From Yuukianura sp. NJ FZ-2021 (Eukaryota): a DNA stretch of 64,000 bases. Shown in pieces: positions 28,201 through 52,184 of this stretch. A model generated the notes under the pieces. That model was not told the DNA's origin. It worked only from the letters and a program-made list of their open reading frames with translations, and did no database searches. The stretch lies in assembly GCA_046563655.1 (NCBI GenBank), contig CM102290.1, forward strand, positions 8,246,001-8,310,000, in the 5' to 3' direction. Position 1 is the stretch's first letter; the number at the start of each line of letters is the position of its first letter. The position numbers were made by a program, and so were the translations under genes.

Positions 28201-30982
28201 TCTAAGCTTAACAAATTTGCAATTCTAAGGTATTAACATCCTCAAGTTTAAGTTTAAAATGCCATGTTACGGGGAATCCTTACCTTTTACCCTCAAGGAA
28301 TTTTGGGTTATGTTATGTAACTGAAGTTGGGAGAGAAAAAACTTTTTGTCACTGAAAGTTTACAAATATTTGTAAACATGTTTTTTTTTGCTGAATTTCT
28401 TGTTTTAATTTAAAAAAAACTGTTTCTAATCATGAGACTGTGAAAAACATTATGATTCCGCAGCGGACATGATGTTTTCTTTTTCTATTTTCCAAAAATA
28501 GTTTTAATTTTAACTTTAATTTTAATAGAATCTAATTTAAGTAATTTTATTTTTATTTATTCATTGTTTATATAAATAATTCACTATTCATTGCAATTTT
28601 TTTTGTCTTTGCAGAGGTTGCTGTTTCTACTGGACCAAGTTTTCTAGCTGGCGTTAGCGTAGGCCTGGTAGTTCTCGGAATCAAGAGTCTTTTCGCTCCG
28701 TTCCTCATCGCAATGAAGTACATGATGCTGAGCTGGTACTTTAAAGATATGGGTCCAATCGACATGGTCAAACAACTTGCTGGTCCAGTACTTCCAGCCT
28801 GGATGACCGGATGGCGACCACTCCCACCCCCACCACGCGGGTGGGACCACTCTCATGAACAATATGAGCCACCAAAACCCTACGAATTTGGTGGGGCAGC
28901 TCACGGTTCAGAAGGGAAACCCACAGGACTCATGGGTGCACTGACCCACTTACTTCCATTTACGTCTCAAGACCAACCGCCCCACTTTTCAGGTCCAAGC
29001 GGCATGTTCCAGACTGGTCCTAGACCCACTCACTACTCTGGTCCATCCGGAGGTGGATTCCGAGCCACACATTATGACGGTGAAGGGCGTACGCAGGTCA
29101 CACACTCATCTGGTTTCGACGGTGGGGCAGAAGAGCATCACAGTGAGCATGAGGAAGAAGGTTACCACGGAGAAGATCACCAGCCCCACCACACACCAGC
29201 ACAAGATGACGAAAGTAGTGGGTTCAAATATGTCCCACCAACTGCCCCAGTAGACGCTGACATCTTGGATCCATTCTACAGTCCACTCTTGTCCAGAATT
29301 GACTCAATTTTTATGCACTTGGGATTCACGGAAGAAGGCTGCAAAGAGCGTGCAGTTTGCTCCATTTACAAATTTCCTGTCAAATACGCTCCTTACTCAA
29401 ATCTCCTATCTGCTCAACTTTCCAAGTAAGATATGAAAAAAAATTATGAAAAATTGGTTACTGTAAAAAGAAGGAATGTCTAAAAACAAAACAAAAAGTG
29501 CAAAAGCAAAACTTTTCACACGAAAAATTGTGTTGAAATGAGAAGTTGATGGTTGAATTGGGCATGACAAAAGTGGAAACATCCTTATGTGCTTGACCTT
29601 GCACTTTACTAGTTACATTCATCTTGCTCTTTTGACACAGTTTGTGCAAAAATGCAATTGAACAAATTTTTTGGGAGGGAAAACACTTCGAAATTGTGGT
29701 CGTCATGCACAGGGCTTTTGAGGTCTCTATTAAATGGCACGATATATTAAAGTTAATTTGCTATTTCCAGGTCAAATAAGATTTAAAAAAATGATTGAGC
29801 GGCTATTAAAACGTCTGCACTCATCATTCGTTACGTATTTTACAACTTACCTGCTGACATAACACGTTTCATTTACTACACGTCCAAGTTTTTCTATAAC
29901 TCTGTAAACTGCATGCAGTGCATCGAATCCCTAAAACATTACTTGAGCAAATAGGTTTCCAAATTTGTTCTAAAGTAGTTTACATTATTTTCACTTAATA
30001 ATTTTGAGGATTTTTGGTATCATTTGTTGTCAGTTGCAATCTTCTTTCTGCTTATGAACGCATTGAAACTAATAATTAACTCATCATAATTAACTTTTCT
30101 CACACGTTCTCGTGCACAGTTCTAGTTCAGACCTCAAAAATTTGTAATCCAAAAGTTCCGCTCTAAGACAATAAGAGTCAAAAAATTTTTGAAAACGCAA
30201 ATAGTTTTTAGCGTATCCTCCTTTCTGCGTTTGAAATTTCGAAATTTTTAAACCCGGAATTCAAAACCGAGCGTTGTGTCTTTGTTTACCTAGCAAATCT
30301 TGAAAAGACATCTTCAGTGTCAGATGCTCAATGTTAAGAACGTCAAAGATGGGCCTGAGTCCCATCTTCGACTTTAGTTGCACATTGGTGAAATAGATGG
30401 AAGGAAGGATAGTAGGCGCAGACGATGAATTGATTGTTACATCTAAGTATGCAATCAGTGTATGTATTAATTAGAGCAGGATTAAGATGTGACCTCAATT
30501 AAAAGGAAGCAATTTTTAGCCTATCATCGTTTATTCTAATGACATACTAAAAATAATAACTTCATTTTATTGGCAGGGTGTGATATTTTTGATTTGTTAA
30601 TTGTTCAGTTGAGAGTAACATTTGATTTTTATGAATTTTGAAGGCATTTTGTTATGCAAAACTTTCTTTGCAATATTTCAGGCACCAAAGCGAGCTTAAG
30701 CGTCCTCTCAGCACTTCTCCTAAAATTTTACGATACTTCAAGTACATGAAGGCTGCCAAGGATGGACAAGCAGCACTCAATTGTATTGAACTCTATCCAA
30801 AATGTTCCAACGACACTGAAAAGCTTACAAATCTTCCAATGGTAAAACAAAAAATTTAGTATGAAAAAAAAATTTTATTATGAAATAAGTTAAAATTTGG
30901 ATTTGTATAATTTGTATAGGTTAAAACTTTTCAACAACTAACAGAATTGATGGGAACAACTGGAACAGGACCAAGTGGGTAG
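25295..30982 (+). CDS. Secreted or membrane protein with a C-terminal DM4/DM12-like Cys domain. Exons 25295-26177, 28615-29425, 30682-30841, 30920-30982.
   Basis: Has a signal-like N-terminus (FSLALYCIIVLTSSCMG). The phase-1 donor GTAAG at 26178 joins in frame to the acceptor at 28614, merging two separate ORF-track entries. The C-terminus reads CKERAVC..P.KYAP..RYFKYMKAAKDG..C..LYPKC. The family name comes from motif resemblance only. Confidence 0.7.
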
Positions 30983-32813
30983 ACGTTCACTCAGCAGAAA
31001 ACAATAAATGCAGCATTGCCAACTAATCTTAAATTGAAAAAAAATTGAAAAAGATGCACAAATTTCAGAAATTCCTAAACTTACAAAAAGTGTGACACTC
31101 CTTGAACCCAAATGATATTACACTTGCTACATTTAACTTACAATTTAATTTCAAGTTAGAACACAAATGTAGCAAAGCAGAGGTTGCATGTATTCCCCCT
31201 CCCAGACTCCGCTTGTTCAAATGCGTTCGAACTGTTTTTTTTCTAAAACTTTGTGTTAAACGAACGCAAAAAATAATTCTCCTGGACCAATTCCTTTGTC
31301 TAAATGTCATGCAGGCACTGACATTGACATGAACTTAAGATGCCATTATTTTTCCTTTACTAGGACTACTAGGTCAACCATTTGCACCATTTATGACTAA
31401 AAATGCAATTCGTTAAATTGCCATCTAAAATGTTGTTAACTGTAAGAAGTTTGCCGATAAGCTTTACTACTATACGAGCTTCTGACTCCGTAACTTTTGT
31501 GACGAAATTTGAGTGATACTGTACTTCCGTAAATACGTAAATTTTTATTTACTCGCCAGTCTGAATGTTAAGTAGTTTTGTTGATACTTTTGCTAAATTG
31601 TTGCCTAATTTTATTTTTTAAATGCTTTAAAAATTTGGATTAGTTAGTTATAGCAGACATTTGTTTGGTCTTTGTTATGTTTGTATTTTATTTTTTTTTT
31701 ATACTTTTTGTTAACTATTTGTTTGTATACTTTAATTTATTTTCACCGCGTTGACACATGACGACACTGCACTAATAACTCGTCCCAAAACGAATTGATG
31801 ACAAGAAACACCAATTCAAGACTATAACTAACTTTAGTTAAAAACTTACTACGTGCCTTTAACTCTTATGTTATGTTGACAAAAATTACTTTAATTGACA
31901 ATAATTAACTAAGCTGATGACCTTTTGGTCAAAGCCTACCTTCTAGTGGGACTGACATCAAAAATGGACACAGCGGAACGTTGAAACTGAGCTTTTATTT
32001 TCTTAAAGCCAACAAAAACATTTTGAAATTCTCCATTTCGTGGGAAGAAAGGCTTTAAATAATGCAAGTGAATAAATCTCAATTTTTGTAACTTTTAAAT
32101 GTATCAAAATTTGCAAATTTATCCTCAAAGAATTGTTTGTAATGTTTTGAGTCCAGACTGTTTTGTGTGTCGTTTCATGCCGCAAGCCTTATAATTTTGA
32201 CAATTTGCCTAGAAATTTCCTAAGTAGGTGCGATATATTCTCAGTATTTGGACTTTTGACAACATTTGACAAGTGGGGTTAATGGACGGACAAGCGATGA
32301 CTAAAAATTGTTAGTTCAAAACTACGTAACTGTAACAGTTATGAAATTTTTTTTTCGTAGATTTGCACTCATTGATTATACAGTCAAATTGCAATTTTGC
32401 TAATTTCCTATGTAAAGCATTGGGAATGTTCTAGTAATGGGGTCTTATGTGTTACTATCTAAGAACCACCAGTTACAGAAGTGGATCAGTTACAGAATCC
32501 TTTGTTACCCGCTGACTTTTGCAAAATTCGTACTGAAATTTTTGTCGGTTCAAGATTGTGAGGCCTGTTCAAACAGCGTCAGTTAGCAAACAATCTGAAA
32601 AATAAATTTTGTCACCTGAACATTGGAGGCGTGAATGACACTTTTGAAGTTAAACAATTCCGAAAAGAAATAAAATTTGTAGGGTCTTTTGCTGGTGTTG
32701 CCCGCATAAAAGTGTTTCAATTTTCAAAGTTTTTAGTTAGTCTAAATTGTGACGGTTTGAACAAAAGTTGAACGTTTTCTTGCCGTTATTGTACTAAACG
32801 CTACTCAAAAATC

Positions 32814-35800
32814 ATGGCGAGAAGCTATTCAAAAATCGGTAAGCAACTTGGCAGATTTCTAGTTGTACTGTTGTCCGTTGCAAAGTTTTTGTTTCAAAAT
32901 ACTTATTTTGTTAAAAAATCGTTTTTCCTATAATTTTGAAAATTTGTAAATTGTAATTTACAGGATCAATTAGTAATGGTTTTTTGGAACTTCTTGCTTT
33001 GAGTATCCTGACATATCTGTTAGCTGCTGAAGTCAATGGAGAAAGTGGTTTTGATTCGGAAGATCTGCCGCTTCACGTTGGAGCAAATGAAGCACACAGT
33101 CGACAAAAGCGGTTCATTTATTTCAATACACAGTCACCAGTTGACATTGGTAAGTTATCAATCAATTGGTGCAGCTAGAGTTTAGCATAATTTACGTAGA
33201 GACTGGGAAAAATTCACAAAACTTTTCTTGACACATTTCAACTTCACAAATTTTTTATGGCATTTTTTTTGTAATTTGAAATTCTATAATTTTTTTAAGG
33301 CCTGCTCATCACAATTCCTCTGTCATTTGCTTTGCCCACGTTCAACTTAAGAACGTCCCGCCGGTTCAGCCGCTCTACCAACGGTGGTGAAGGTGACATT
33401 ACTTCCAACATGACGCTTGACGAAATTTTTCCAGCAGATTCTTACGATGAGCCAGCCTACAGTTCTGAACTCAACAAAATGTCAACGTACTTCACTATCT
33501 TGGAGGTATACAACCTTAACAGTTTCCGTAATCATGCTGCACCGAAAAAGTCCAGTTAGAATTCCATTGTGGTCTTGCCCACCTTCCTTTTCAACAGTGG
33601 ACTTTTTGAAAAAGTTTAGGAATTTTAAAAAGTTGGCAAGTCCAAGGATTGAAAAGAAAGATTTGGGCAGTAGAAAGCAAGGTGTCATAATAAATCGAAG
33701 GAAAGATGTGGGCGGTTGAAGGGTCCCAGTCTTTTCCTTTGATTGAGAGGCAAGGGTGGTGGTGGTCACTTAAGCTTAGGTTGCCTAACCTAAGCTTTTC
33801 CTGGAAGTTCCTTAAGGGGTAACCACCACCAAGGCAAAGGTAGAACATGATTCAAATTGGTTCTCTCAAGGGCTGCTGAGTTATGATGATGGATGAATCT
33901 CAATGTTGTTGACATTGACATTCAAACACCCTTGACTCCAAGGATTTTGGGGTAGGCTAGGTTCATTTGACCTTCTACGCACTTCTAACTTAATCTTACC
34001 TTAAACCTGACTTTTGTTTTGCAGCGCCATTACATAACGCTTGCACAGATTTTGTGTAATTATTCCTGAAAGGTTCCAAGTTGAGCCACATTTCTTTCTT
34101 CGGAGAAAGTTTTTATAACCGATTTGGGCAAAATTCTAAAAGGTTGAGGAATTTTTATAACCGGAAGCTTGGAACTCCCGTCTTTTTTAATTTCCAGAAA
34201 TGGTTTATATCTGATTGTTAGTTTAAATTCCAACAAAAAATCTGATTTCTTTCCGCAAATCAACTTTCACCACACCGCACACAGCAGAATGTATTTTTTT
34301 GGAAACTTGAAATAATTTCAAAATTTTTGACATGAAAATGTGCATCATTTTTGTGGCAAGCATCTGGAGAATGTATTGTACTTTAGCAGATGAATACAGA
34401 CGGCCAGTTGCATTTTCTAAAGTTACAGAAGCAAGGAGTCGCTGCGTCTTTGAAGCCCTTTTACCTTAACCTCATAACCCCCCATTTTCTTTGGATTCTG
34501 CCACAAACTAACTGATTTTTGAGGGTGGGTTATTCATCCCTTTATTCACTTTTTTCTTTTTGTTGTAAACTTATTGTTTTTTAAGGGGAGGGGGAGGGGG
34601 ACTGTGGTTGACTCAATAGACTTTGTATTGATTCCGGGAAGACGCCTAACCCCAAGTAGGTTTAATTTAAGGCTCCTTTTCAATTGCGAAAGGATGCGGC
34701 TGGTGATGATTGATTTTTGAATTGGAACCGTCAGATCTTCATCTTCTGGTTTCTCATTGTTACTTCATCTCTGATCTTCCTGATGAGCAGAGATCACTTG
34801 TCCTCTGCTCTCCAATGTTCCCTTAAACACAAACTCTTTAGCCACTTTACTACTGGATTTACTCCTTTAGGTTAGGGTTAACCTAACCTCCTGCTGTACG
34901 TCTAGTGTCTTGTAGTAGTCAATGGCAACTTTGAAACGACCTTGAACTTGGACTTGAGAACCAAGGGACCGCAGGGCCCTCCATCTCCAAGTTCATAGCC
35001 GTTCCAGGGCGTATCTCATTCGTGATACTTTATTCCTAACATTGAAATTTTTATTATGCAGACTAGGACTAGGAAATTTCGAGTGAGGTTTGTTGCATGC
35101 ATGGTTTTAGTGGCGGTGGTTAGTGCTCAAGGGGCCCTTTATACTGACTAGTTCATGTCCCCTTAAAACCTCATCATCCTCAACTCGTTCTTTGGTAATC
35201 CCACTTGGTTTGTGTCCATCGTTAAGAGCTCCCGCGTAGACCAAGCAAACAATCAAAGTCTTAAAGGGACCCCTTGACCTCTACTCTCCGACTAGCCTAA
35301 GCTAAGTCCCATAATCATGCAGATGTGAAGGAGCCCTTGTGGATGATGCCTCGAGGACCATTCTAATGAAGTGGTCCAGCAAGCTTCTAACGGCTTCCTT
35401 CTTGTTCAAGACAAAAAAACTTGATTCAAACCTTGATCAAAATGACTTTGGAGGCCTTGAAAGTGCCTATTATTAATTCTTACAAGAGCATTGACCCTTG
35501 AACATCTACGAGGTCTACTAGTCTAAGGCCTCCCTGCTTACTATGCTTTCGTCCAGAACTTTCTTCTAAGACGCAAGTACCCTTCATCCAGGAACGAAAT
35601 GCAGCAGCATCTTCTTCCGTGTAGTCTTGAACTTGAAAATAGAGAAAAAGCAAAAAAGGCCCTTCGTCATTCACCAAAAAAAAAGACGACGAGTGGGCCC
35701 TTAAACTGAAAAATCTGCTCCTATTGTTTAACTTTATTCCCGTTGTATTTATTTAGAAAAGAGACCTTCAGCTATTTCCTTAAAAATGAAATTCACTTTT

Positions 35801-36328
35801 CCCTTCAACAATCGTTTTTTAACAAAAAAAAAACTTTCAATTTCTAAACAGATCAACGAAGACGTTTGTCAACAGAAGATCCTTTGTGAAGTCTTTGCAG
35901 AGCCTGATAAATTCAAGCCTGTTACAGATATTTTTATGAAGAAGTTAACGTAAGTGCTCTCTTAACTTAGCCTAAGGGCCTCCTCAAGTGCTTCATTTAA
36001 AAGTAGAAAAAACCTCAAAGCACCTAATTATGTAATTGGAAACTATATAGAGAAAAATGGCTCGTTTTTCTTTTCAAGATTTTTGTTTAAAAAATGTCGT
36101 TTTATTTAATTTTGAAGGGTGGACCGTGGTCCTGTTGATGAGAAGCCGTCGAGCCGTTACTATCGTTACGTCAAAGCCATGCAGGACGGGATCACTTCCG
36201 GGCTCAACTCGTGTGTCAAGGGCTACAAAGCCTGTCCATATTCGGCCACAGAGCGGCTAAACATGCCCGCACTTCATTTCTGGACCTATCTCACGTCTAT
36301 TCTTAAAATGGAATTTAGAGATGAATAA
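32814..36328 (+). CDS. Secreted DM4/DM12-like protein, paralog of the upstream gene. Exons 32814-32838, 32964-33149, 33300-33505, 35852-35949, 36118-36328.
   Basis: All junctions are GT-AG and in frame. Features are a signal peptide (FLELLALSILTYLLAAEVNG), a furin-like RQKR site followed by FIYFNTQSPVDIGLLITIPLSFALP, then CQQKILCEV..P.KFKP and RYYRYVKAMQDG..C..GYKAC. Confidence 0.8.
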
Positions 36329-37859
36329 GAACTGGACGGAGACCGTTTTTCTTGTTCAAAATTTCAGAAAAAAATTACATCCGACTAACGGACTTTCTTT
36401 TCAAAACCATTATACGCTAGGAAACTCAATTCCAGTTTTGTAAAAAGTTTCATTTTGTTTAAAAGTGAGGAGACAAGCTGCTGCTGCAAGCTGCTAGTAC
36501 GTGACACACGTTGTTCATGAAAATCTTGTACTAAAAATCCAGTTTCAGGTGTTCAAAACTTATTAAGACTCAGAATATGTACTTTTCAATCCTTTTTCAA
36601 AAAAAAAAATCAAAAGGAAAGCTAAGTACTAGTTGAGTTTACAATGAAACATTTTTCTCTCGTCTTCTTTGTGGACAAACTGGAACATTTTTTTGGGTAA
36701 AATTTGGTGAACGGGGTGCAGGGCAATATTTACTTTAAGCAGGGTATGAAAAATACAAATAAAATTCTGAATTTTTTTCTTCCTTAAACAAATGTGAACG
36801 TCATTTTCAATCTTTTTCTTTTTTTGCAAAAAAAAAAATTGCACAAGGAATTCAATTATTGTGCAGATTTGACAAAAGTTGCATTTGATTCAGATATGGT
36901 ACTCAAACTGATAAAACAATTATTTATGTTTTGGATGATTTCGTTAAAATTTTGAGTGGCGCGTTGTTTGTGAAATCTCAAAAGTAATTGAAACCTTCAT
37001 TACGTTTTTAAATTTTAAATGTTTTAGTCTTTTGAACTATTTTTCTTAGTCTTATAAATTATAAATTTGGAAATGAAAGCTTCAATATACGTTGCAACAT
37101 GTTGAGGAATTCATGCAATAATAAAATAAACAAAGAGCATATCCAATTTCAGTTTTTTAAATCCCCAACTTTTTCTAGTTTCTATATTTTCAAATCCATT
37201 TTTTCAATTCACATGCACACGAAGGATACAAAAAGTTATGATGATGACTTGACGGAACAGAATCAAGTAGTACAACTAGCTGCTTGCAGTATTATCTACC
37301 AATTTGGAATATTTTAACAAATACCAAATCCCACGAAAAAAAACTATTGACGTTTTAAAAAGTAACACAACAAGCTTCTAAAGTGTAACACTGTTTCTAG
37401 CGGGTTTGATGACACAAAATTAGCCAATGACATTGAAAATGTAAACATTTGAAAATGAAGTGGAATAAATTAAAAGGTAATGATAAATTTAGGTAGTTGA
37501 TTTAAACAAAGTTTTGAAAAAAAAATTGTAAACTCATACGTCAAATTCAGTCTTACACAAAAAAACAAAAGCATCTCACACGATTGACTGTCGCTCTTGG
37601 ACTTAACCACACACAAGGCAAAAAAAAGTTTTAAGCTGAACTGGACGCATGCTCTGATCAGCTTAATATTTTTCTAAAGATAAAGATGACACCTCCTTGG
37701 AACTTATAATTGTCTTAAATAATGTCACACAGTTTAGAACACACCACAGTTAACGCTGAGGCTAAATAGTTAATAATCCATAATTTAAAAATTAAAATCT
37801 ATATAATATGAACAGTGTGCGTCCCATCTTGTTCAAGTTGTCTCCAGTGCCGCTTGAGT

Positions 37860-40800
37860 TCAAGTCATGCGAATGTGATGGTTGTACCATGTTTCTACCC
37901 TCATTTCATCGGTCACAAGTTGTCCGGTGGCCAAAGTTGCAATGAGCAATGGGGTCGCACAGGTCAAAGTCCTTGAATCGTCTCTCGCCGTCGTCTGGGA
38001 GGTGGTCATCTACAATTAAAACACAAAATTAGTTTTTATTAAAGAACATTTCATTTTTTACTTTATTTTAAAACAGACATCGAAAAAGCATTTCTCTCAG
38101 CCTGCTTGAGATCATGCAACTAGCAATTTTTGCAAAAACTTTCTGCCAACCCTGTCGCACTTTAACTTTTTCGTAAATTTTAAAAGCGGTAGTCGCAAAG
38201 TGCTTAACAAGTGGTTCTGAATCCAGAAACTTCTAACTTTCCCTGGGGTTACGTGAGACATTGACAAAGTGTAGGTTAGCACGGAAGGACTTAAACGTTA
38301 GGTTATGTCTGGAAGTCCTGTTAGGATGCATTATGTCCAAAGTGGTGCCTACCCCTTTGAGCTCATCATCTCAAGTTTCCTACACCGCCGCGACCAGTCT
38401 TCAATGAACTTCTCGACAGATAACCCACCTTGAGTCGTTTATCTGAAGGCAAAGGAACCGTTAGCCACGACTCATCTTTCTTCCGCATCCAAAGCACCCC
38501 AGTCTCAATCAAAGGCCATTTCCGCCTTTCCTTTAACCAACTTACACTTAAAAACACCCGCCACCAATTCTCCAAAGTTCTAAAATTTCAAAACATTTCA
38601 ACAGAAACGTATTCACGCATACTTTTTGTTCGAAAGGCCTCTACCCCGCACTTTCACTGTGCTACTACTATAAAATTCACTTTATCTGCGATAGTAACTG
38701 CTGTCAGTCCCTTAGTATCGCTCAATTTTCCATTTTTTATGTGTAGTCAATGATTCGCTACAAGCCAAAGAACTTGTATCAAATCATTAATGTTTGTTAT
38801 TTGTTATTATTATTATTTTTTGATATTTTGGGAATTTTATTTTGTTGGAAGATGGCTAATTTTATTTTTAAATTCTTGCATTGTTTTAGAGTTTGGAGAA
38901 TGTTTTTTCGATTTTATCTTGTAATTTGACGTTATTGTACATTTTTTTTAGAATCTGGTGTGTGAAAACATGCTGTGCAGTTTCCCTGACCTTTAACAAA
39001 AGTGAAAAGAGAGAAGGACGCCTAAGGGAAGGAATTGAAACGAAACTGAAAGTGAAAAGCGCATCTTTGTCACGAATCTCTTGAACATAGGGATCATATA
39101 TACAAAGTATAGTTGCCAAATGGTGGATCTTTAGTTATCCTTTCCCATTCACAAAATGATCTCGTGGTAAAAAATATACAAAAGAGCAAGGCAAAAAATT
39201 GGAAGATGAACACGACAAAAAAAAATTTTCTTCAAAGATCAGCTGAGGGTGAGAGTAGGGCAGTCTCTGCCCATCGGCAGTCGAGTAAAAGTGCATCGCC
39301 CTTTAACGGTTCCGTTGAGGCCAATGTCTCACGTTGTTCCCCCTACGGCAAATTATAACTTACATTTAGGATCAAGCCAAGCCTCACCAGGAAGACAGAA
39401 GAAAACTTTCATTAAACTCTTAACGATAGGATCATCTCCCAAATTAACAATCAAAGAGAGAGAGAGTTAAGGAACTTGGGCACAGTTCGCTCAATTGGAA
39501 ATTAGAATCCAAAGGTTTCGTAATTAAGTTAAAAATAGGAAATGATTTATTTAATTGTACGAAATTAATTGATATTTTTCAAGATTAGTTAATTAACTCC
39601 ACTCGTGATAGGAATGTTAGCTAAGAATGTTAGGGTAGGGCACAAATTCAAGAAAAAAGTTAGGCTAGACCAGAAAAAATTGGATGTGAATAATTTTATG
39701 TCGACCTTCAAGATGTTGAGGAAGATACTTTTATTTACTACTCAATGGGAAGAATTTTTTATATTCCAAAAAATATTTTATAAAAAAAATTTTTTTTACT
39801 TAATTTTTTTCGTGTAGTGCATTTACTCTGAGAAATTGAAATCTGTTTGAGGAAGATTCAAAGGATTGAATAATTAGAGGGAGATGAAGATGTTAAAGGT
39901 TTTCAAAAAGAGAAAAAAAACTTGAAGAGGAAAAGGGGTGAATAGATATGTTTCCGGTGTATTTAGAAAATCCACTGATTTTTTTGTCATGCTCAAGTCT
40001 CACTTTTTTCAAAAATGATAAAAAAAAAGTATTTTATAAGGTTTTTTTTTCTGAAAAGTTTTTGATTCATTTCCGTAGTGTCGTCGTTGTCGGCTTGAAC
40101 TTGAAATCTTACAAGTGAAAGAACCTTATCATTTACTTCTATCAAGAGTGATGGCATTTTCATCTCTGTAAAGAAATCTCGTAGCACGTGGGTATAGTAC
40201 AAGGTGTTTCAATATAGCCTAGGTCAAGATTTTCATTTAAAAAAAACATAAAAAATTTTGAAAAAAAATTACACCAAAATTGAGCATGGACGAAGAAATT
40301 GAAGAAATTTTAAACACCAAATCTTGCCGTACAAATTAGGAAAATGATCCACGAACTTTCTAAGAATTGTAAAACGCCTCGTAATTTCACAGCCTCCTTT
40401 AATTTTTCAAAATAGAAAATGCTCTTTTCCTCTCTTTAAAAAAAACTTTTTAAAAAAGAGAATAACATTGTTCAAATGGATTGTGATGAAAATAAAAAGA
40501 AAGACCTTCTGAAAGACTGAAGATGGATCTGCCTAAAGGTTGCTCTTGGTGATCACTTTTCCTTTCAATTTGTTCAAGGTTAAGGCCAACCTAGCCTAAG
40601 AAGATGCCCTTCCGCCTTCCAGAAAGAGGCCCTTAAGGGCCCTTGCATTTTGGCATTAAGTAACCATTATGAGGTTCTAATGACCATAATACAGGAGACT
40701 CTCCCGAAGATATATTTAGCTTAGCCCTCCTCCGTTTCCAAAAACTTTAAAAGAAAAACCAATGCAAAATGCTACCTGTCAACAAACAGAACTTTTTTCA

Positions 40801-42578
40801 AGGAAAATAAAATATTCTCCGGATAAGATCAGGTAGTAATGAGCATGGCCCTGGCCCTTAAGTCCAGCAGATCCAATGAAGATGTTATGACATAACAATG
40901 GGTAGACTTCAATGAGGACCAACTTAACCTATCGATCATGGTCACTCCTTGGGCTAACCAATCTGGCCTAAGAAAAACCTAAGGGTCTCGAAATTGCACA
41001 AAGTCTCTAATTTCCAACATTTTTGGAAATCTAGCCTTCAACTACTACTTATTTATGTTTGAAATTTATGTTCCTCCAATTTCAGAAGTGACAACTTAAG
41101 TAATAAAATGGAACCAAATGTTTTGCCCAGAGGTCAATGGAAAAAAAGGTTCAGCAAAGAGTCATTTGACACTCGAAAAATCGATTGGATTTTTGCACTC
41201 AAAGGAAGCAAAAAGGATTTTTTTTTAGAAAAAAAAGTCATATGTCAATACAAAGTTCAAGTTATCATGTGACGCCTGGGAATTTTAGACAAAACAAGTC
41301 AATCGAACAGTACGACTGCCAACTTGGCAGTGGCAAGTGATCTCATGTTGCTGAAATTGCACTTGGTCTGGGATTTTGGTAACATTGTATTATTAGTATG
41401 TGACACTTGAGACTTTTTAGTAGACTGATGGGAAAATGGTTTTGATCTACTTCCAGCACCTACTAAAAACCACTTAACACTTTTGCCACTGGACGGAAAG
41501 TGGGATTCATCCTAGCAACTAACTTCCTGCTCCTCGTCTTACTAAATAGGAAAGAGGTTAATGTTGACATTAGCATGACAAGCAACTTCTACCGTAACTA
41601 GAACTAGACACACAAAAATTCAGAAATCAGCACAAGTTCTCAAATTGCTAAAAAAAAGTGTTGCAAATGCTAAAATAGGCCTCCTCAAGTAGCTTCAAAG
41701 TTTTTAAATACTATCCAAAATTGGGGTTGTGACATTATTACGCAATCACACAGCAGGGGGTGGATTTTGGGGGTGCATTATACCTGTTAAATAATTGTTG
41801 ACATTTACAAACCCGCTGCTGCCCGTTGTAGTATAATAGTATAGGTATGAGTCATCAGAAACGGTATTTTGCTGTTGACGTAATAATGTCCTAACATAAC
41901 TTCTGTTAATGACCTTTGCGATTTTACTTGGAAATGAGTGCCATTTTTTGTAAATTAAAACACTACTTGAAAATAGTAAACATAAAATTAAAATAAATGG
42001 GGCAGCACATGAGAAATTTTAGACTTGCTTTATGCCTTTATCCAATAAGAAAAGTTGACATTTAGAGAAAATTGGAAATTGTCTTAATTGCAATTTGCAA
42101 TTGAAAGTTTTTTGTTTTCAAATGTAAACACGCTGTAAAACTTTCATATCACCTGTAATTAAGTTTCAAACGTACACACGCTTGAAAAGAAATCAAAAAG
42201 CACAATGCCTTAGTCAACATTTTCTCTATTGTTTCCCTTTGTATATAATCTTTTTCTCCCATTGTTATAAAAAAGGAAAGTGTTCACCACAAACTGTGTC
42301 ACCCGTCTTAAAAGCTCTATTTTAAATCAACCCCATGAGATAAAATGGACAACAGGGATTTGACACGGTTGACGGATATGGCGGGCTAACCTTATTTTTA
42401 CCTCCTGTCCCGTTTCAAAATAAAATTGGAGCCAATTTTCAAATTTTGTTTCCAAAAAATTATGAAAAAGTAATTCAAAAGGATCACCTACCCCTTGTTC
42501 TGTTGATCCAAGATTTGATCCAGTTCGGTCTTCCTCGTTCGACTCCAGCGAAGCTGTTGTAGATGCAGCAGTGTTCAT
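37860..42578 (-). CDS. Putative third cistron of the pri-type transcript, a spliced 78-aa ORF (exons 42578-42492 and 38009-37860)
   Basis: This is the next ATG after the two LDPTGLY ORFs (aaaATGa). The donor GGG|GTAGGT at 42491 and the pyrimidine-rich acceptor TTTTAATTGTAG| at 38010 join in frame. The product is MNTAASTTASLESNEEDRTGSNLGSTEQG-MTTSQTTARDDSRTLTCATPLLIATLATGQLVTDEMRVETWYNHHIRMT. I recognise no homology. Confidence 0.4.
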
Positions 42579-42721
42579 TTTCCAAAATTTCAAAATTTGG
42601 TGCCAAAATTTTTGTCAAAATTAGGCCTGGTTGAAATGACCTTGTTGATGGAATTGACCTTTGGATGAAGATGGTATATTAGGTTGCTGTTTCCTTGATC
42701 TTGGATTCTGCTGCACAGGTT

Positions 42722-42763
42722 CTAGTAGAGACCGGTTGGGTCAAGTTTTTGTGGTGGGTCCAT
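42722..42763 (-). CDS. pri: tarsal-less/polished rice/mille-pattes-type micropeptide 2: MDPPQKLDPTGLY
   Basis: The minus strand reads aaa ATG GAC CCA CCA CAA AAA CTT GAC CCA ACC GGT CTC TAC TAG. It has the same LDPTGLY motif, with only synonymous differences from peptide 1 (CTC/CTT, GGC/GGT, TAT/TAC, TAA/TAG). Confidence 0.93.
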   Translation of the reverse strand: MDPPQKLDPTGLY

Positions 42764-42907: not shown

Positions 42908-42949
42908 TTAATAGAGGCCGGTTGGGTCGAGTGTCTTGACGGATTCCAT
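42908..42949 (-). CDS. pri: tarsal-less/polished rice/mille-pattes-type micropeptide 1: MESVKTLDPTGLY
   Basis: The minus strand reads gcc ATG GAA TCC GTC AAG ACA CTC GAC CCA ACC GGC CTC TAT TAA. The C-terminal LDPTGxY is the defining motif of this family, and the start context gccATGg is strong. Confidence 0.93.
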   Translation of the reverse strand: MESVKTLDPTGLY

Positions 42950-43261: not shown

Positions 43262-43268
43262 AAACTGA
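43262..43268 (-). promoter_or_regulatory. Candidate initiator (TCAGTT) for the pri-type transcript
   Basis: The arthropod Inr consensus TCAGTT occurs on the minus strand. It is followed by a ~310-nt leader with no ATG before micropeptide 1. No TATA box is seen. Confidence 0.35.
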
Positions 43269-46200
43269 AGTTCGGAGAGTAAAAGCGGCGTACTTTTCTC
43301 CGGTGAGGAAGGGCGGGCAGGGAGGAAGCGGATTCAAATGTACTGAAGTAGTGAAGGACAACCCCGTTTGGCCCCGCCGAGCCCCTGCCCCGACCTCACG
43401 ACCACAGGAACTTGGACGTTGACATTCCCCATTCGAAAAAAAAATCGAAATTTCCCTCTCCTTCCTTAATACTTCTTTGTGCCCAGTATATGCTGATGAT
43501 GCACCCATGAGGAAGAGGTGGCTCTTGCTTTTTTGGTGGTGGGAGGTTTAGCCACGAGAATCTTCGACAGAAGTCCAACAACAATGGTTTTTTTGTCAGA
43601 GGGAACTTAACGGTAACTGTTTATTTAGGTAGCCTCAAGGCCCCACCCCACCAAAACATTGACCAAACGTAAAAGACTTCCCTGACCCCTAAAGACAAAA
43701 CGTTCCAAGACTTGTCCAAATGTCACTGTCACTCTTGACTAAGTTAACAGTTTCAACTTGCTTGGCCAAAAAACTGCCGGTTCAAATTAAACGTACAACC
43801 ATACTGCTAAATTAACGAGTATGCGATACCAAACTAAAAATTCGAATAGTATTTGTAACAATGCCGCACGAATTGGAATCTCTCATCACGTCCAGAGCCC
43901 GGAAAGATCTGAGGAGAAACTTTAAATAAGTAATAAAAAAATAAGTTTTTAAATAACAAAAAATTCTGGGATTAAAAGTGAAAAGTGATCCTATCAAAAA
44001 CGGCTCAAATTTTGTTATCCAAAGTTCAATTTTTTCATGTATTTGCCGGCAAAAAAGAAAGAAGAAAATGTTTCCAACAAATTTTTTGTTGGCACTTTAT
44101 TTATGTAATTGATTTGGTTGTTAATTTACAAACGTTCCTGCTGTTTTCTTTTATTTTGTTTTCATATTTTGAAAACCGAGCCGCAATATTAGATTTTGTA
44201 ACACAAAATTGAAATTAAAAGTCAAATCAAACTAAATTGTATGAATGTGGGATAGGAATAAAAACTTTTTTCTCGCTCGATCTTGTTCAGGTGAGATTCC
44301 TGATCCTGAATGTTGATCTCCAGGAAAAGATTTGTTGAGTATCCACATCTCCTTACGTAATACTATCATTGTTGAGCCTCTCATTCAAATGGGAAGTCAA
44401 GAATCAAATACAACAAAAAAAAGTATAGGGGTGAAGCATCCCTATACACGTATAATTTCCAAAGTTATTAATTCCAGTCCTTAAATGCCTTTATACCTAT
44501 TATGCGTTTTATTATATTTTCTAGGCTTATTAGTAGTTTATACAAGTCACAAAAAATCTTGAATCTGGAACTTGTTTTCACCCCAATCTTTTATGAATAT
44601 CAGGTTTTGTACACCGGACTCAGATACAAAAAGTTACTTCCTTCTCTTTTTGGAGCTCCCTATTAATTCTAGATGCATCTGTAATGAAACAGGAAAACAA
44701 AAGGTCCAGGGACCAAATCTTTTGATTCAAAATTCAAACTGGAAGATCCACAAAAACTTTTCACTTTTTTGGATTATGAATAAACGAAGTTCGTCCGTTG
44801 GTCTAATAATAACTTTTGCTCCAATTAATTTCAAATCCTGTCAAATCTTTTATAACGACGTTTAAAAAAGGTTCCTCCAAGTTCAATTTTTTTAAATTAC
44901 AAAGTTCAAGTTCAAGGTAACCCCAAACATGATGTATGGCTGGTCTTCGAACAACGGTTTCTGAGAAGCCGGAGGCAGTTTCAAAAAATAGCGTTTCAAA
45001 ATAGGGATATGAGGCAGTTTTTTGAACATTTACATACAGGATGAATAGGAGAAGACAGTTAGGTCAAGTGTAGGAGACTCTTCATTTGTAGCCTTAATCC
45101 TTAGCACTTTCTCTGGACCTAAAAGGTTAGGCCCCCTCAAGTGACCTCAAGCGGAAAGAAGGTCCAGGTCGAGCAGAGACTTTCAACTTGAATAAAATTC
45201 GGTTCTATTTTGGGTGCTAATTTTTGGGAGCCCTTAAAGGGGTTGTATCCTTGGCAAGTACTTTTGTCTCTCTCAAAATCTTTGTTCTTTGTAATAAAAG
45301 TTCTTTTGGAATTGACTAAAAGTCCTCCAGAAAAACTGACAATTCTTTTAGCAACTTTTCAAATCCAAAGTGACAGAAAAGGAGAGTGAAAGGGACATTG
45401 CCGTTGAGTTAAGAAGGGCCCTTACATTCATCCCTCTTCGAGCTCAAATGTACACAACCAACGAGCAACCCACCGGTTTTTGTAGTTACTTTTACTGGAC
45501 AAACGGTTACTCACAAGTGTGTGAAAGTGAAAAATTTAATCTATTTTTAAATATCCCAATTTGGGAAGGTCGAAAAGAACAGTTTTAGTACTTTGAAACT
45601 TCAAACTTCTACAAAAAGTTCGACATATTTTTTTAAATGCTAAGTTTATTAAAAACACTACCATTCAGGAACTGTTGACTTTATGATCTGGAATTGTTAA
45701 ATATCCGATTATACCAACACACTTGATTTTAACTATTGACGAAATTGTATTTCAAGTTCTAGAAAAAACTGGGTAAAAATTGGAAACAACAAAATTTATT
45801 TTCTTAGTGATGATAAATTCGGAAACCAGGAGATATCTATTATTAGTACATGTACAATTATTGAGATACTGGAAATTGTGGATAAATCTGGAAAAGGGTA
45901 GAGTGTGACATTTCAATTGTTGTCTCAAGGACGAGGTCAAATACTTCCAGGGTCAACTGGTAGTCGAAGCCCTTTGAGTTAAGTACAAACATAATGCCGC
46001 AGAATTATTTTGAAGTGGTTACACCATTTTCAATAAACTGGAATTCACAAATCGTTACAACTTTACACACAAGATTGAAAATTTTTAATTGTTACAGGAA
46101 GCATTATAGGTTCAAATTTTTTAAAAAGTAGACAAATTTTAGTAGTGTGAAGGGAAGCCGGTATCTAATTGTATTGTAGAAATTAAGTCAACATGTAATT

Positions 46201-48694
46201 TTCGATTAGGCAATGTACTCAAGAGACATTAATTGTCCGACTTGTGCATTAATAGAGTTGTTTCCAAACACCGAAGTATGATAGATAACACTAAGTTTAT
46301 TAACCCAGCACATCCAGACAGCTTCACACCAGACATACAGTCTCTCCAGTTGTATCAGGTATCCAGGTCAGTCTTCGGCTATCCAGAGGCGCTAAAACTT
46401 TTTAATGTTCTGGATCAAATACCATTTACGCCTTTTAGACAGTAATTGAGACAGACTAATTGTAGTTTTAATTGACTGATCGGATGATCAGTCTGTAGCG
46501 TCCAATGACTCAAACAACAAAAGCGTGAGAAGGGTACTGGTTTTGCAGGCGGCGTGGCTAGACTACAGTGAAATGTTATGCCTGCGAAGTTGCAGGTCAT
46601 TTCTAGGACATTGACCTTCCAAAGGATTTGGAAAAAACCTTACGGTACTGCATGTAAAGTCATTAGAATTTTCTATTTTCTCCTAAAAATAAACTAGGAG
46701 CGAGCGGTATTAAGGTATGATGGATGCATTTGCTTCAATTCCATAAATAAATACTCTCACTAGCATACAACTTTTGCCTTTACAACAAAAGCGGTAAACA
46801 CCTTTCCTTTGCTCAAAAAAATTTCACTAGCAAAAATACAAGTCAAAAAGTTTTACTACTTAATTATAAAAATCTATACAAATTGTATTAAAATCGGATT
46901 TACTTTCGAAAAAAGAGTAAAAAAAAGAAAAGTTCGAAAGAATCGAAACACGCTATTAAATACAAACATTAGAAAAGCTGTAGTAATTTAGAGTAATCAG
47001 CAAATCAACGCTAGAAAAACTTTCCAGTTTTTAATTCACAACTTCGTCAAATTAAAAAAAATTTGCAGTCACTTTCCAATGATGAATGGTCGAGGAAGAG
47101 AAATTTCACCTTGCCATTGGATGACTCGTTCGTAAACTTATGATCGTTGCAATCCCGTTACTCAATCCTATGATTCGTCCGGAATGAATTGTGGTTGAAC
47201 TGATCCGGAACAAATGCTTCGTGCAGATTCGCACACACACACAAAAAGTGCAGTTATTTTGCAGAAAAGCATAACAAATACATAACATAAGTAGAGATGA
47301 GGCATCCACTTCCTTGGAAATGGGTTAAGGAAAGTCAATCCTCTGGCTGGGAACTAACGGGACACGTTCTCACTTAAACACAGGGTGCCCTACCTTAGAA
47401 GGAAGTCGCTTCCCTATGAACATTTCCATCTTCTCGAAATTTCTTCCGCATTGATGACTCTTCTACCAGGATTCATCTTATCCCAACATGGAATTGCAAT
47501 TTAAAACAGTCAATTCATCCTTTCCCTTGGGTTTTAACTAAGGAGAAAGAAGGAAGTGAAGGAAATGAGGGGCAGAATGTGATGGAACGTTGAGGTAGCG
47601 CAGTTTAAAAACAGCAATTGCCAAAACACTGCGCCAAAACCACTCAACACTCTTCACCTTCTGTGGATCATGAATAATTGATGACGTTCTCAGGCTAATA
47701 CTGACCAGGTCAATGACTCAATCGCCTCCAAACAAAACATTGCACATGAAAACATAAGGTTTTGGCCTTAACTAAACGAAACTTCCTGAAAAATTTGATG
47801 AGATCATCACTTTTCCATAAGCACAATGTCCAATTCTTCTACAATTTGAAAATAATTAAACTCTTCCAAATAAAAAAAAGTCAAAAATTGATCCCGGCAA
47901 ATTTTCGGTTTACAAAAAAAAAATTAGCTGAGCATCATCTTTAGTTTATCTGCGTTGCATCTGCAGTTGGCGTAAATCCATCAATAATTTTTTAAACTTT
48001 GTTTTCAATATACACACAGCGTTTCAAAGTGTGCAGAAGCTACCCTAACAATTTCGGAAAAGTTGACAAAATGTTTCGAAAAAGTTGGAAAAAAAAGTGA
48101 GCTTGGTTAAGGTTAGACTGTAATTTGTCTAAAAAAGTTATACGTTATCCTGTGGGAAGGGAGGGTTCAGAGGTGTGATTTCCTCGTTGTTGTCTCTATG
48201 TTAACTTATTAACTAAGCAAAAAGAAGAAGATGGTGGTGAATCGGTGTAAACACTGCGGAAGTGCCTTCTCCAAACTTCATCTTTCTCTAACACCCAAAG
48301 TCATTCACACCGCGACCCAGATTCTCCCAGATTGTTTAGTTTTTTTTCTCACTTTTGGCAAGTTCCTCTTGAGACAGGCCAAATACAAATGAAAATGACT
48401 TTTCCTCATTCAAAAGGCCACTAGCCATAGCCACTTTAACTTTACTTCTCAATGGACTTGAAGCCTCTCTCAAGTAACTCACAAACTAATCACCACCACT
48501 AACATTTGAGCATCAATTCCTCCAATCTCAACCTGTCACACCACTTTACCAACTAATTAATTCAAGCATTTTTGCAAAAAAAAATCTCAAAAGTTCCCAT
48601 AGCCTTACTTCCCCATGTTTATTCCAAAATTTACTCCAAAGACGGAAATGTAATAAAGTTCTGGAATTAATTGGGCAACTTAATTTGGAAGTGT

Positions 48695-51596
48695 TCACAG
48701 TTTGAGAAGATCCCCATAAGCGTAAGCAGCCAAGGCCAAGATTGGAGATCCCGTTGGCGTGTCTGGCACTGAAAAGGCAATTGTTTTGCTCAAAATATGT
48801 TTCAAATTGAGTTTCAAATTTTAAAGTAAAGAAAAAAATTCTCGTTGGCTTACCATGTCCACTTGATCCGGCGATGTCAATGTGTGTGTACTTCAGTGGT
48901 TTCTCACTGTTTACTCCATGCTAAAACACAACAACGAGAAAATTTATGTGAATGAATGCCGTGAAAGGGAGGACAGTATGATCATACGAGTGTTGTGAAT
49001 TATGTAAACGGTGACTTTAGAAGACAATTTAAATGTCAGCAACCTTTACGAACACAAAAGCTTGAAGTCGCAAAGGTTAACCTGATTATGTTGAGGAGTC
49101 TTAAAGGAAAGCTGCTTTTTACCTTGTCCAAACCTGAAGCCAACACCATGAAAGCAGCTGGGAATTGATGACCACGAGCAGTTTGAGAAGACGCTTTGTT
49201 GTTGCATTGCAGTAGGTCGGCATCCCCATCATTCGGAGCTAAAATTTTAAGTGACAAATACTTTTCAAAAACAATTTAAATTCCAAATTTCAAAATTAAA
49301 CTCATGATTCATGAATTCGTGAAAGAGGAGAGCGAGCACCCACACTTGACAAACTTGTAGTCTTCACGTCGGATGGTGCTAACATCAATCATGTCACCCA
49401 AAGTTTCTCCAGCCTCCTGCAAACGGTGGGCTGATTTAGCGAGTCTAGCTGGTCCATTGTCCAAAACTGCTGTGTAGGTTCCGACGGCGAGACATGCATG
49501 TCCAGTCAGAGTTGCTGGAAAACATAAGTACATAACGCGTTACCGAAGCATTCAAATGAGCGAATGAGGTGTTTTCGTATTTAAACAAAACCTACCGATT
49601 GTCATCAAGTGAGGATTAACTTCATTCAGAGCCAATTCCTTCAACTGTTAAGATCAAATATTAACATAAATGTCTGGTATCGTAAAAGGGCTCCACACAA
49701 TAGAACAAGTGAATCTGTACCTTGCACAAAACGTCAGTCATAACCATGCGACCTTCAGCATCTGTATTTCCGATTCGCATGCGTACTCCAGCTCGGCTCG
49801 TAATAATTTCATCAGCCACTGTAAACGATAAGGTACACAAAAGGTAGAATTTTAATCCTGGACAATTTCTGGAAGAATAGTTCAAAGCTCATCTTCACCA
49901 TAGCATTCCTCTCCAATAGAGTTCCGGGCCACCGCCAAAGCTCCAATTGCCTTAATGTTGCTTGGAGCAAAGTGCACCAACGTCTGTTTAAAACGGTGTC
50001 AATATTTATTAGGGAAAAGTGGGTAAAATAGGATAAAATCCGCAGGAATACCGTTTGACAAGATGCTTACTTGAAAAAAGCCGACAACATTTGAAGCTCC
50101 ACATTTATCACGAGACATGCCAGCCTATTTGAAAAATGATTTAAATAATATATCAGGAAATTCAATTTTTTAATTGGATTTCTCAAACCTTCCAATTTCT
50201 GGGAATGAATTTTTCTTACTAAATAAGTACTAAAAGTATATTTACCATGATGCCACCCGCCTTCACATCAGCGCCACCTATACACAATGCAACATTGTAT
50301 ATTCAGAACTTATGAGGCCAGGGTACTTTAGCATATAATTCGTGTGAATGAACATATTCTTTACCAGTGTCATAGGTGATTCCCTTTCCGACGGGTAGTA
50401 GAGTCTGTGTAATCTTGCCTTCACCAGTATACCTCAAGAAAATAATTCGGCCTCGGTGTCGTTCAACAGCTTCAAAAAAAACAACAACAATATTTTAGCA
50501 ATACTCAACTAAAACCAGCTTTCTAAACATATTGGCTACCATTTGCTGCGCGATTGACTGCTGCGAACATTGGGTATTCCTTCTCGAAAACGCGAACATC
50601 ATCTATGATTTCGACTGAAACTTTCGTTCCGTGAAACAAGTCCTTGACGTAGGCAGCAAACCTTGGCGGGGCCATTCGTTCTGGATCAGCTCCACCCAAA
50701 TCTCGAGCAACGAACCGTCCACTTTCCAATCCCATCGCAAGCTTACAAATTTCACCGGAATTTTCGCCATGAGCATGGAATCCAAGTTCAGTGAGCTTTT
50801 GTGCTGTGGGTCCAACCGCTTCGCGGTACTGAAGTGGCTGGATTTAAAAAAAAAAAACTCCTTCAGAAAGTTTCTCAAAAGTTGAGTTTGAAATGTTTGC
50901 AATATATAATTCACCTTATAAAGGCTTTCGCAAGCACCGAGGAGAGTACAGAGAGCAGCAGCATGCTGATGGACCTTCTTTTCTGGAATAACCACAAGCA
51001 AAGCTTCGGTTGCTCCTGCGCTGATAGCTCTGTTAACACAAAAAAACACAATCAATACTAAACTGAGCTGAAGAAGCAGAGCTTGATAATTAGCACTTAC
51101 CGCTTAACACCTTTGGCTGCAGCTTCGGCGTAAGATCGTGGATCGTAGTACTCATGATCAGAATGGACCGGCGCATAAACCAATCGGGTCGTTGACCCGT
51201 TGCCGAGTGGAAGCAAAGTACCATCCTCCTCTACAGTCTTGTCAATCTGACGACCAAACGTAAAACAATGTTATCATCAACCATTATCTAGATCACAGCT
51301 AGGAATTCGACACTGGTGCTTTCCAAGCTGTTCATTTAACACTTTTTCTAAAGCTTTACTTGTCTATAAATGTCACACAAAAGCAAATTACGGAAATTTC
51401 CCTGGGTAGGGTACATGACAATTAAAACCTATGAAAAGTTTTTAACCTGGGCCTGGCTGGAGAGCACTTGGAAATACTGAGCAGCCGCCTGCTTCACGTA
51501 GTCCAAGTTAGCCGCAACGCAAATGATGGCGCCATACTTCGTACTTGCGAGGTTGTCCTCCGCAGAGAGCTTACACGGAAGGCGATATCCATCCAT
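48695..51596 (-). CDS. M17 family leucyl (cytosol) aminopeptidase, about 14 coding exons
   Basis: Motifs include ESGRFVARDLGGADPERMAPP, EKEYPMFAAVNRAA, GKGITYDTGGADVK, MSRDKCG, IGNTDAEGRMVMTD, TLTGHA, RGHQFPAAF and YTHIDIAGS. These are M17 metal-binding and catalytic motifs, resembling the invertebrate W07G4.4-like subgroup. Confidence 0.92.
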
Positions 51597-51673
51597 GATG
51601 AAGTGTCGTCGGAAATTAAGGGAAACAGCGACTGGAAATCGTGTCTTCCGAACCACCAAGGAAACTACACAGG

Positions 51674-51711
51674 AACTGATTACTCGGATTCCCGTCAGCG
51701 TTCTATATAAA
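51674..51711 (-). promoter_or_regulatory. Core promoter of the aminopeptidase gene: TATA-like box plus initiator
   Basis: Minus-strand TTTATATAG (51711-51703) lies about 30 nt upstream of ATCAGTT (51680-51674), and about 80 nt before the ATG at 51596. Confidence 0.6.
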
Positions 51712-52184
51712 GCATACAAAGTTATCAGCAATTTACACAAGTATTATTTGTCAGTTTCCAAGCCTTATTAAGTCATCAATCCAAAGAACAAAAACATCCC
51801 CTGCAATCAAAGCGACAGTTACTACCTAAACCTAACAACGGCCTAAAGTGGTTTACTGATAAATTTTCAATAACTAGTCAAAAACAAACAATTTAGTTGA
51901 GCCGTTCTCAGGCTAGAGAGAGACCGAATAGTTAAATAACGCCTAATCTAAGCTTTCTAGAAGCCACTCGATTAGTTACAATCTAGGGGTTAAAACCATC
52001 GCAACAACTTCGAAAAATACCAAAGTCAAATCTACGTGACAACTCATCCTATCGAATCGATTTAACGAAAAATGTAAATGTTAGAGTATCTATGAAGTCA
52101 TGAAGACGAAATGACTTCATTGGTATAAGAAATCAGTTTCACTGGAAAATATCAGGGTCAATTATTGTGCAACGAACGAGAATA

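Follow-up and report, generated by a model that had tools for sequence, protein, structure and literature searches.

A stretch of 64,000 nt from the springtail Yuukianura sp. NJ FZ-2021 (assembly GCA_046563655.1, contig CM102290.1, positions 8,246,001 to 8,310,000; hereafter the window, whose genome is designated G000) carries on its reverse strand a pri locus, also called tal or mlpt, in which two short open reading frames (ORFs) are followed by a third one, ORF3, apparently split by a large intron. This ORF was presented in the initial annotation as a possible lineage-specific, undescribed peptide co-encoded with Pri, whereas our analysis indicates that it is most likely the leftover of a lost full-size gene. 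The reading that we favour, tentatively and with a confidence just short of even, is that of a springtail pri gene with a transcript spliced from 42492 to 38009, where ORF3 would be a short last ORF sitting in the slot of a lost full-size cistron, with its frame kept at most and its sequence left free. The pri gene is the textbook example of a gene made only of small ORFs, and what its last ORF represents has been a matter of dispute from the earliest papers on. Taken alone, the 78-aa peptide probably matters little, a conserved functional product being unlikely; the value of ORF3 is that it leads to an arrangement of pri ORFs with a full-size protein, which suggests an origin, open to testing, for the contested last ORF. 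Such an arrangement was overlooked initially: a full-size protein related to the DM4/DM12 family occupies this slot elsewhere, and a paralogue of it is the next gene of the window.

The putative transcript would start at a candidate core promoter or initiator of 41 nt (43262..43302, minus strand), which is 83% identical to sequence lying ahead of pri in a metagenomic contig, L011, and ends in TCAGTT, presumably an initiator motif. A leader of 326 nt without any ATG separates this probable start from ORF1 (42908..42949, minus strand), which is followed by ORF2 (42722..42763, minus strand), both encoding 13 aa with an LDPTGLY end. These are the only two matches to the pri motif in G000, and the window thus carries the at least two short same-strand ORFs ending in LDPTGXY that characterise tal/pri/mlpt genes. 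For comparison, a single pattern scan of a metagenome collection, with an A required before the ATG, yielded 72 loci (L numbers hereafter), an incomplete sample in which 45 loci have at least one ATG-started ORF ending in LDPTGxY and a stop, and 36 have at least two. Forty-three of the 72 were kept by hand and fall into 26 sequence clusters, 22 of them with two or more pri ORFs. A near-identical ORF2 peptide was found in L003, L011, L059, L063 and L073.

The architecture of ORF3 described in the initial annotation is fully present in the DNA. Its start codon at 42578 (minus strand), the third ATG past the putative transcript start, opens 29 codons (42492..42578) that end at a phase-0 donor, GGG|GTAGGT, at 42492/42491. 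Following a putative intron of 4,482 nt (38010..42491), deduced from the sequence and not from junction reads, the acceptor ttttaattgtag| at 38010/38009 keeps phase 0, and the frame continues at the start of the predicted exon 2 (37860..38009) for 49 codons up to a TGA at 37862-37860, which gives a spliced product of 78 aa. Intron retention would instead add a tail (42327..42491) and give an 83-aa product terminating at 42327. A Ser/Thr-rich composition (31%), a hydrophobic stretch (best 19-residue hydropathy of 1.40) and the lack of a poly-Arg run were also confirmed, with five scattered Arg and no Lys residues. As for the exon-2 block, claimed to be GC-rich and isolated, the first part stands, since its GC content is 0.51 and 38009 is, among the eight T-rich acceptor candidates of the window, the one with the highest downstream GC and the longest phase-0 frame; the second does not, as windows near 39390 and 38530 are equally GC-rich. 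Exon 2 is single-copy in G000, and a sharp drop in GC, from 0.50 to 0.25, is seen across the donor. The start codon has an A at position -3 and is the first AUG following a 13-codon ORF. When the spliced region was shuffled, an ATG within the first 100 nt opened at least 78 codons in 0.9% of 20,000 trials, a figure to be read with the junction having been picked post hoc.

The closest counterpart of this layout occurs in L073, a contig sharing with the window the pri locus, a conserved element within the intron and the convergent neighbour gene. In this contig 29 codons run from an ATG to a CAG|GTATGT donor, and 50 more codons follow in phase 0, for a total of 79 aa versus the 78 of the window. 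Its exon-2 acceptor, at reverse-strand position 16866, is the best of 16 T-rich candidates both by GC (0.48) and by phase-0 frame (50 codons). The predicted intron of L073 measures 6,160 nt, against 4,482 nt in the window, and the distances around exon 2 are similar in both cases: 1,243 nt in the window versus 1,306 nt in L073 from the conserved element to exon 2, and 1,680 versus 1,654 nt from exon 2 to the stop of the neighbour gene. In this line, L063 shows a 19-codon ATG frame up to a phase-0 AAA|GTAAGT donor, in a contig that stops short of the expected exon 2, and L043 has an ORF with an Arg run, 38 codons from its ATG to a phase-0 donor, without a clear exon 2. Donors fitting 8 of the 9 consensus positions sit at the equivalent place in L073, L063 and L043, with a background of 0.34 per kb, and the first intron lies at a comparable distance past the last pri stop in the window (230 nt), L073 (161 nt), L063 (246 nt) and the genomic loci L071 (232 nt) and L052 (341 nt). 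Shuffling of L073 exon 2 left a given frame open over 49 codons in 7.5% of trials, and there are two ATGs that reach the donor; the joint chance of the L073 layout, estimated by hand, would be about 0.04, or about 0.014 when L063 is added. Frame conservation between the window and L073 appears modestly supported on these grounds. Through the 29 plus 50 codons in phase 0 in L073 and the phase-0 donor in L063, the idea that a spliced third ORF takes the place of tal-B and of the hemipteran last ORF (smHemiptera) finds support, whereas that of a peptide whose sequence matters does not.

A different splicing pattern would affect any reading of ORF3. The transcript might end within the putative intron, giving the 83-aa form, or use another donor, one at 42402 or one lying before the ATG, or else the acceptor at 39242; we regard this as very improbable. 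It would agree with the weakness of the ORF3 donor, which fits just 6 of 9 consensus positions while two sites upstream of the ATG fit 7, and with the position of the AATAAA/ATTAAA signals, as none was found between exon 2 and 36330 and all seven lie inside the intron. An alternative phase-0 donor, GAG|GTAAAA at 42402/42401, would yield 108 aa, and Drosophila pri is described as intronless in passages of PMC8435736. On the other hand, GC falls sharply precisely at the donor used here, 8/9 donors are equivalently placed in the three related contigs, exon 2 is the best candidate by two measures with matching distances in both species, and L073 does show an AATAAA 1.1-1.5 kb past its exon-2 acceptor.

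The intron itself contains a non-coding element (39252..39332, minus strand), a probable enhancer with a CCGTTA core of the Ovo/Svb type, conserved in L073 (76.5% identity over 81 nt) and L063 (73.8% over 80 nt), which match each other at 60 of 60 positions. We take the TGCACT half-site beside this core to resemble an ecdysone response element. According to parts of PMC4053989, CnGTTa is an Ovo/Svb-type motif. From its sequence the element is a possible enhancer of pri, acting in Svb feedback or in the response to ecdysone. Just past it, an acceptor-like CAG|CTGA is found in the window (39242, minus strand), in L063 (reverse-strand 11754) and in L073 (reverse-strand 15618-15622), a recurrence that would also suit the use of a different acceptor; the motif is preceded by a pyrimidine run in all three and by a branch-point-like ACTAAC in L063 and L073, and could be either a conserved alternative acceptor or an E-box.

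Comparison at the sequence level gave a very different picture from that of the layout. All nine frame pairs between the ORF3 regions of the window and L073 are at chance (p 0.43-0.93), as is their nucleotide alignment (p 0.60), whereas an exon of the neighbouring gene keeps 49 of 70 residues identical between the same two contigs, so a conserved peptide is not supported. Ser+Thr richness is not common to both (31% in the window, 10% in L073), and the hydrophobic stretch is missing from L073 (0.35 versus 1.40). The springtail pair therefore keeps the length and splice phase of its last ORF without sequence similarity, which separates a frame that is kept from a peptide that is kept. Searches of three ORF3 forms with tblastn against the 72 loci gave a best E of 0.094, the tail of the retained form has no similarity in the related loci, and Pfam returned no match for ORF3. 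Among 5.8 billion proteins, a word-based search restricted to candidates of 26-86 aa found none with three of the 5-residue words of exon 2; neither exon 2 nor the retained form turned up in the protein collection by exact look-up, which could overlook a record of the spliced 78-aa form, and an Atlas search gave no usable match, a result that indicates neither absence nor novelty. With chance similarity to L073 and no homologue found in these searches, a peptide whose residues matter finds no support.

A functional peptide made with Pri could still be fast-evolving and lineage-restricted, much like smHemiptera, and conserved among close relatives only. The length of about 80 aa and the presence of an intron within the coding sequence, both as in smHemiptera, would agree with it, and so would the weak similarity between the third ORFs of L003 and L011, which indicates that conservation at the level of subgroups occurs in related contigs. 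Leaving aside the window's own two forms, 45 pairs of third ORFs were compared, and only two fell below p 0.05: L003/L011 (0.004) and L043/L007 (0.028, due to an Arg run). The intronless third ORFs of the former pair (L003:475-582 and L011:957-1109, both plus strand) have 11 of 29 residues identical without gaps, six of them via synonymous changes; by codon position they match at 14, 16 and 13 of 29, which is little signal, and the similarity does not extend to the window. Since the window and L073 share no motif, composition or hydrophobic stretch, and no protein with three of the exon-2 words turned up in the search above, we consider such a peptide improbable. L003 and L011 also have in common a 49-nt element further downstream, probably an RNA-level motif because a frameshift separates the two copies.

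The lack of sequence conservation is also compatible with a simpler scenario, in which the splice is real and ORF3 is just an orphan AUG frame within a plain, untranslated 3′ untranslated region (UTR), opened in GC-rich and T-poor exonic DNA, the intron persisting for its regulatory DNA. An ATG-less frame of 96 codons in phase 1 (37906..42678, minus strand) is also open by chance over the same junction, which indicates that long open frames come easily there. Codon usage does not separate the two possibilities: ORF3 scores +0.055 under a codon model of the window, between the extremes seen for true exons (+0.004 and +0.167) and surpassed by only 2.8% of wrong-frame pieces, a value that speaks for coding, but 31% of 162 GC-matched short ATG ORFs from 400 kb of flanking DNA are equally coding-like, and the score from synonymous choices only is -0.01. 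Moreover, the pri clusters L005 and L009 show frame-breaking indels downstream of the pri ORFs, and Drosophila ORF-B is reported as dispensable and not detectably translated in sections of PMC1852585. Against an untranslated region stand the equal phase and near-equal length of the ORF in L073 (79 versus 78) and the phase-0 donor of L063, as well as a start codon with A at -3 that is the first AUG past a 13-codon ORF. Overall, we judge the plain 3′ UTR unlikely.

Two other origins for the sequence were tried and rejected. The ATG-less 96-codon frame seemed protein-like by eye, but as a true product it has a wrong-frame-like codon score (-0.117), no counterpart in L073 and no profile score. A DRTG tetramer in ORF3 suggested a decayed LDPTG copy; with a matrix built from 58 sites, the region of the window gave p 0.56, and hints of such decay appeared in only 2 of 10 loci, L011 (p 0.02) and L054 (p 0.03). 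In L011, two ATG-less LDP-containing stretches resembling decayed pri copies lie about 100 and 295 nt past the last pri stop (region p 0.02 and 0.38).

What occupies the slot of ORF3 in other arthropods gives a clue to its origin. Profile searches detected a DM4/DM12-related family on the same strand as pri in 11 of the 36 multi-ORF loci and in 10 of the 22 clusters. In nine contigs (eight clusters), an unbroken ORF of 201-309 codons begins only 2-90 nt past the last pri stop: L006:511-1350 and L040:416-1024 on the minus strand, L028:835-1761, L055:506-1309, L030:447-1049, L068:760-1419, L047:346-969 and L061:349-1125 on the plus strand, and L058. Eight aligned pri-linked proteins (alignment A1) form one family, with a hydrophobic, signal-peptide-like start, an LPxS..LPT-type motif and four invariant cysteines. 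All eight match Pfam DM4_12 (PF07841) at 13-23 bits, L047 alone reaching the curated cut-off of 22 bits, and they would probably represent a divergent branch related to PF07841, as judged from their sequences; Atlas places them near arthropod clusters, some of which carry DM4_12. In the genomic loci L052 and L071 the same cistron has a phase-1 intron at a conserved glycine before an LL motif, and database fragments of cladoceran-type proteins start at that point, so spliced transcripts are the likeliest source of the unbroken, cDNA-like contigs. Two other genomic loci can be added: L042, where the beginning of a Daphnia galeata protein is matched at 68%, and L031, with a weak match.

The relatives of these proteins in the databases are uncharacterised and include CAH0100206.1 (Daphnia galeata), XP_057369107.1 (Daphnia carinata), XP_037089963.1 (the barnacle Pollicipes), CAL4067916.1 (the krill Meganyctiphanes) and XP_053630468.1 (the crayfish Cherax); the linkage to pri was demonstrated in the metagenome contigs and not in these named records. 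Among ten proteins of the pri-linked group that were looked up, none bears a hexapod name and seven are nameless. The predicted structure of the L006 protein has a mean predicted local distance difference test score of 59.6; Foldseek gave no match at E ≤0.001 and a wide search reached a best Z of 3.4, which offers no hint of function and is no proof of a new fold. The literature searched, with most subscription journals outside its scope, contained no account of a long protein on the pri transcript, and the only extra ORF mentioned in parts of a 2024 review is the hemipteran one of 80 aa; pri ORFs on one mRNA with a full-size protein are thus apparently an undescribed arrangement. In L068 and L071, six LDPTGLY ORFs stand in a row before the long cistron, and the last one, of 27-30 aa, is 23-42 nt from the ATG of the cistron.

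Members of the same family also neighbour pri in the springtail genome. Tail-to-tail with pri lies a five-exon gene model (32814..36329, plus strand) for a 241-aa DM4/DM12-related protein with a signal-peptide-like start, recognised by profile matches with E of 1.7e-6 to 7e-4; its last exon shares 74% identity with a protein of Orchesella dallaii and it groups with a protein of Allacma fusca, which points to a springtail as the source of the window, and L073 carries the same convergent gene. A second DM4/DM12-related gene (28545..30859, plus strand, open-frame limits and not a full model; profile matches with E of 7e-10 and 6e-5) is the best G000 match of the crayfish protein P0061. The crayfish member has five matches in G000, three of them inside the window, and further genes of the family are found elsewhere in this genome. 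In a quick, midpoint-rooted tree of 127 rows, the nine pri-linked rows lie on one side of a branch with a Shimodaira–Hasegawa-like approximate likelihood ratio (SH-aLRT) of 90, and the convergent springtail gene belongs to a separate group (the springtail group has an SH-aLRT of 99), closer to other proteins from crayfish, shrimp and orthopterans. Given this separate position, the convergent gene is probably a paralogue of the crustacean pri-linked cistron; an inverted orthologue, also considered, is not favoured. An orthologue of the pri-linked cistron was not found in G000 with queries that are insensitive (L055 gave no match at all, and L040 failed to pick up the convergent gene). Two more DM4/DM12-related members occur in G000, at C7 (L114:4452-4949, minus strand) and C8:3564258-3564410; as both stand outside the tree, the missing orthologue could be one or the other.

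By their defining sequence features, ORF3 belongs to none of the three kinds of last ORF with which it may be compared. Just like ORF-B (49 aa in Drosophila, and the fourth ORF of Tribolium mlpt), as described in passages of PMC1852585, it is last, longer and devoid of LDPTG, with weak or no sequence conservation. ORF-B has a poly-Arg stretch, absent in the 78 aa of ORF3, and sections of the same paper report it only from holometabolous insects, whereas the window comes from a non-insect hexapod; moreover, ORF3 is split by a 4.5-kb intron, in contrast to the intronless Drosophila pri of PMC8435736. Arg runs are present in the third ORFs of L007 and L043. Four near-identical contigs (L007, L016, L056 and L060) have an apparently intronless last ORF of the ORF-B type, with 61-62 codons, an Arg/Lys run and one 3-nt indel inside. 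The resemblance to smHemiptera, as far as parts of bioRxiv 10.1101/667022 and PMC8435553 describe it, concerns the layout: two LDPTG ORFs, then some 80 codons (60-80+) split by large intronic sequence, with two introns in the coding region there and a single putative one in ORF3. The smHemiptera motif GHR(Y/N)WMTHLPLSRP, given in sections of PMC8435553, was compared as a motif and is absent from ORF3, a bare GHR occurring in the ATG-less frame only; when set beside nine third-ORF sequences it gave no pair with p below 0.1, and no conserved motif unites the two springtail-type copies. This bears out the initial annotation, which had found ORF3 unlike the known last ORFs, as it has neither the Arg run of tal-B nor the motif of smHemiptera.

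With the pri-linked DM4/DM12-related cistron, ORF3 shares its position as the first long same-strand ORF past the last pri ORF, its interruption by an intron located 160-340 nt past the last pri stop, and the presence of family paralogues as the next genes in the window. It differs in size (78 aa versus 200-360 residues) and in lacking the signal-peptide-like start, the LPxS..LPT motif and the four-cysteine DM4_12-like domain; its intron is in phase 0 while the first one of the cistron is in phase 1, a phase seen only in the ATG-less frame of the window.

How a full-size cistron could have given way to ORF3 may be pictured as follows. An ancestral DM4/DM12-related third cistron would have been lost, or would have decayed past recognition, in the springtail lineage, with the intron and its conserved element, and the tail-to-tail paralogue, retained after the loss. 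Ribosomes finishing the two 13-codon ORFs would probably re-initiate at 42578, at a low level, and read through the junction; re-initiation after short ORFs is the model proposed in passages of PMC1852585. Some 80 codons of open frame spanning the splice would then be tolerated, or preserved weakly, with the residues themselves free to change, and would shorten the untranslated tail of the mRNA. In parts of PMC3962487, the Drosophila targets of nonsense-mediated decay are said to be marked by long 3′ UTRs and not to be enriched in 3′ UTR introns; a junction-clearing role of ORF3 is thereby weakened and a tail-shortening one becomes more plausible, any role through this decay pathway being speculative. 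We infer from sequence alone the splicing, the translation, the direction of the loss (in hexapods), the homology of the introns and any effect of ORF3 on mRNA stability.

Several observations weigh against a leftover of the full-size cistron, beginning with the different intron phases already described. None of the profiles A1, gA and gAB gives ORF3, the ATG-less frame or the retained form more than a score below 0 or nothing at all, while the same profiles recover exon 1 of the controls L071, L052 and L031 with 17.6, 6.5 and 3.0 bits (0 of 30 shuffles each). The complete orthologous comparison is with one locus only, L073, whose ORF is not coding-like by its codon score of -0.108 under the model of the window (its control exon is also low, -0.015). 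In both L073 and L063, another ATG comes between ORF2 and that of ORF3. The 29 plus 50 layout is not universal among contigs sharing the ORF2 peptide either, since L011 and L059, probably from springtails, are collinear without an intron and their third ORFs, like that of L003, have only 36-51 aa. The rows of the family tree (of 145 representative hits, 107 were retained on coverage) were found with the pri-linked profile itself. Finally, Drosophila ORF-B is not detectably translated, according to sections of PMC1852585, which also argue against a functional reading of the Tribolium last ORF.

A wider view, doubtful though worth considering, is that pri/tal/mlpt arose as short leader ORFs on the mRNA of a full-size DM4/DM12-related secreted protein. 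The mixed polycistron would survive in branchiopods and other crustaceans, and hexapods would have lost the long cistron; tal-B, the Arg-rich mlpt ORF, smHemiptera and ORF3 would then be independently drifting occupants of the slot, kept open across an old intron because translation there still matters. On this view the mixed polycistron would have been overlooked because annotation keeps the long ORF only. If the long cistron shares the pri mRNA, RNA interference against pri in crustaceans would abolish products of two types, Pri ORFs could double as upstream ORFs controlling a secreted protein, and sequences of the ORF-B type would gain an origin.

Other genes complete the window. An Osiris-like DUF1676 ORF (25265-26191) and the two DM4/DM12-related genes form a cluster of three secreted-type genes (25265-36329, plus strand) facing pri. 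Farther away are a weak Quiver/Ly-6 match (8266-8679, plus strand) and an amidohydrolase (12161-13853, minus strand), both from Pfam, and an OTU-like deubiquitinase (17495-19212, plus strand), which was recognised by eye, the piece searched giving no Pfam match. On the other side of pri, Pfam identifies an M17 aminopeptidase (48546-51743, minus strand).

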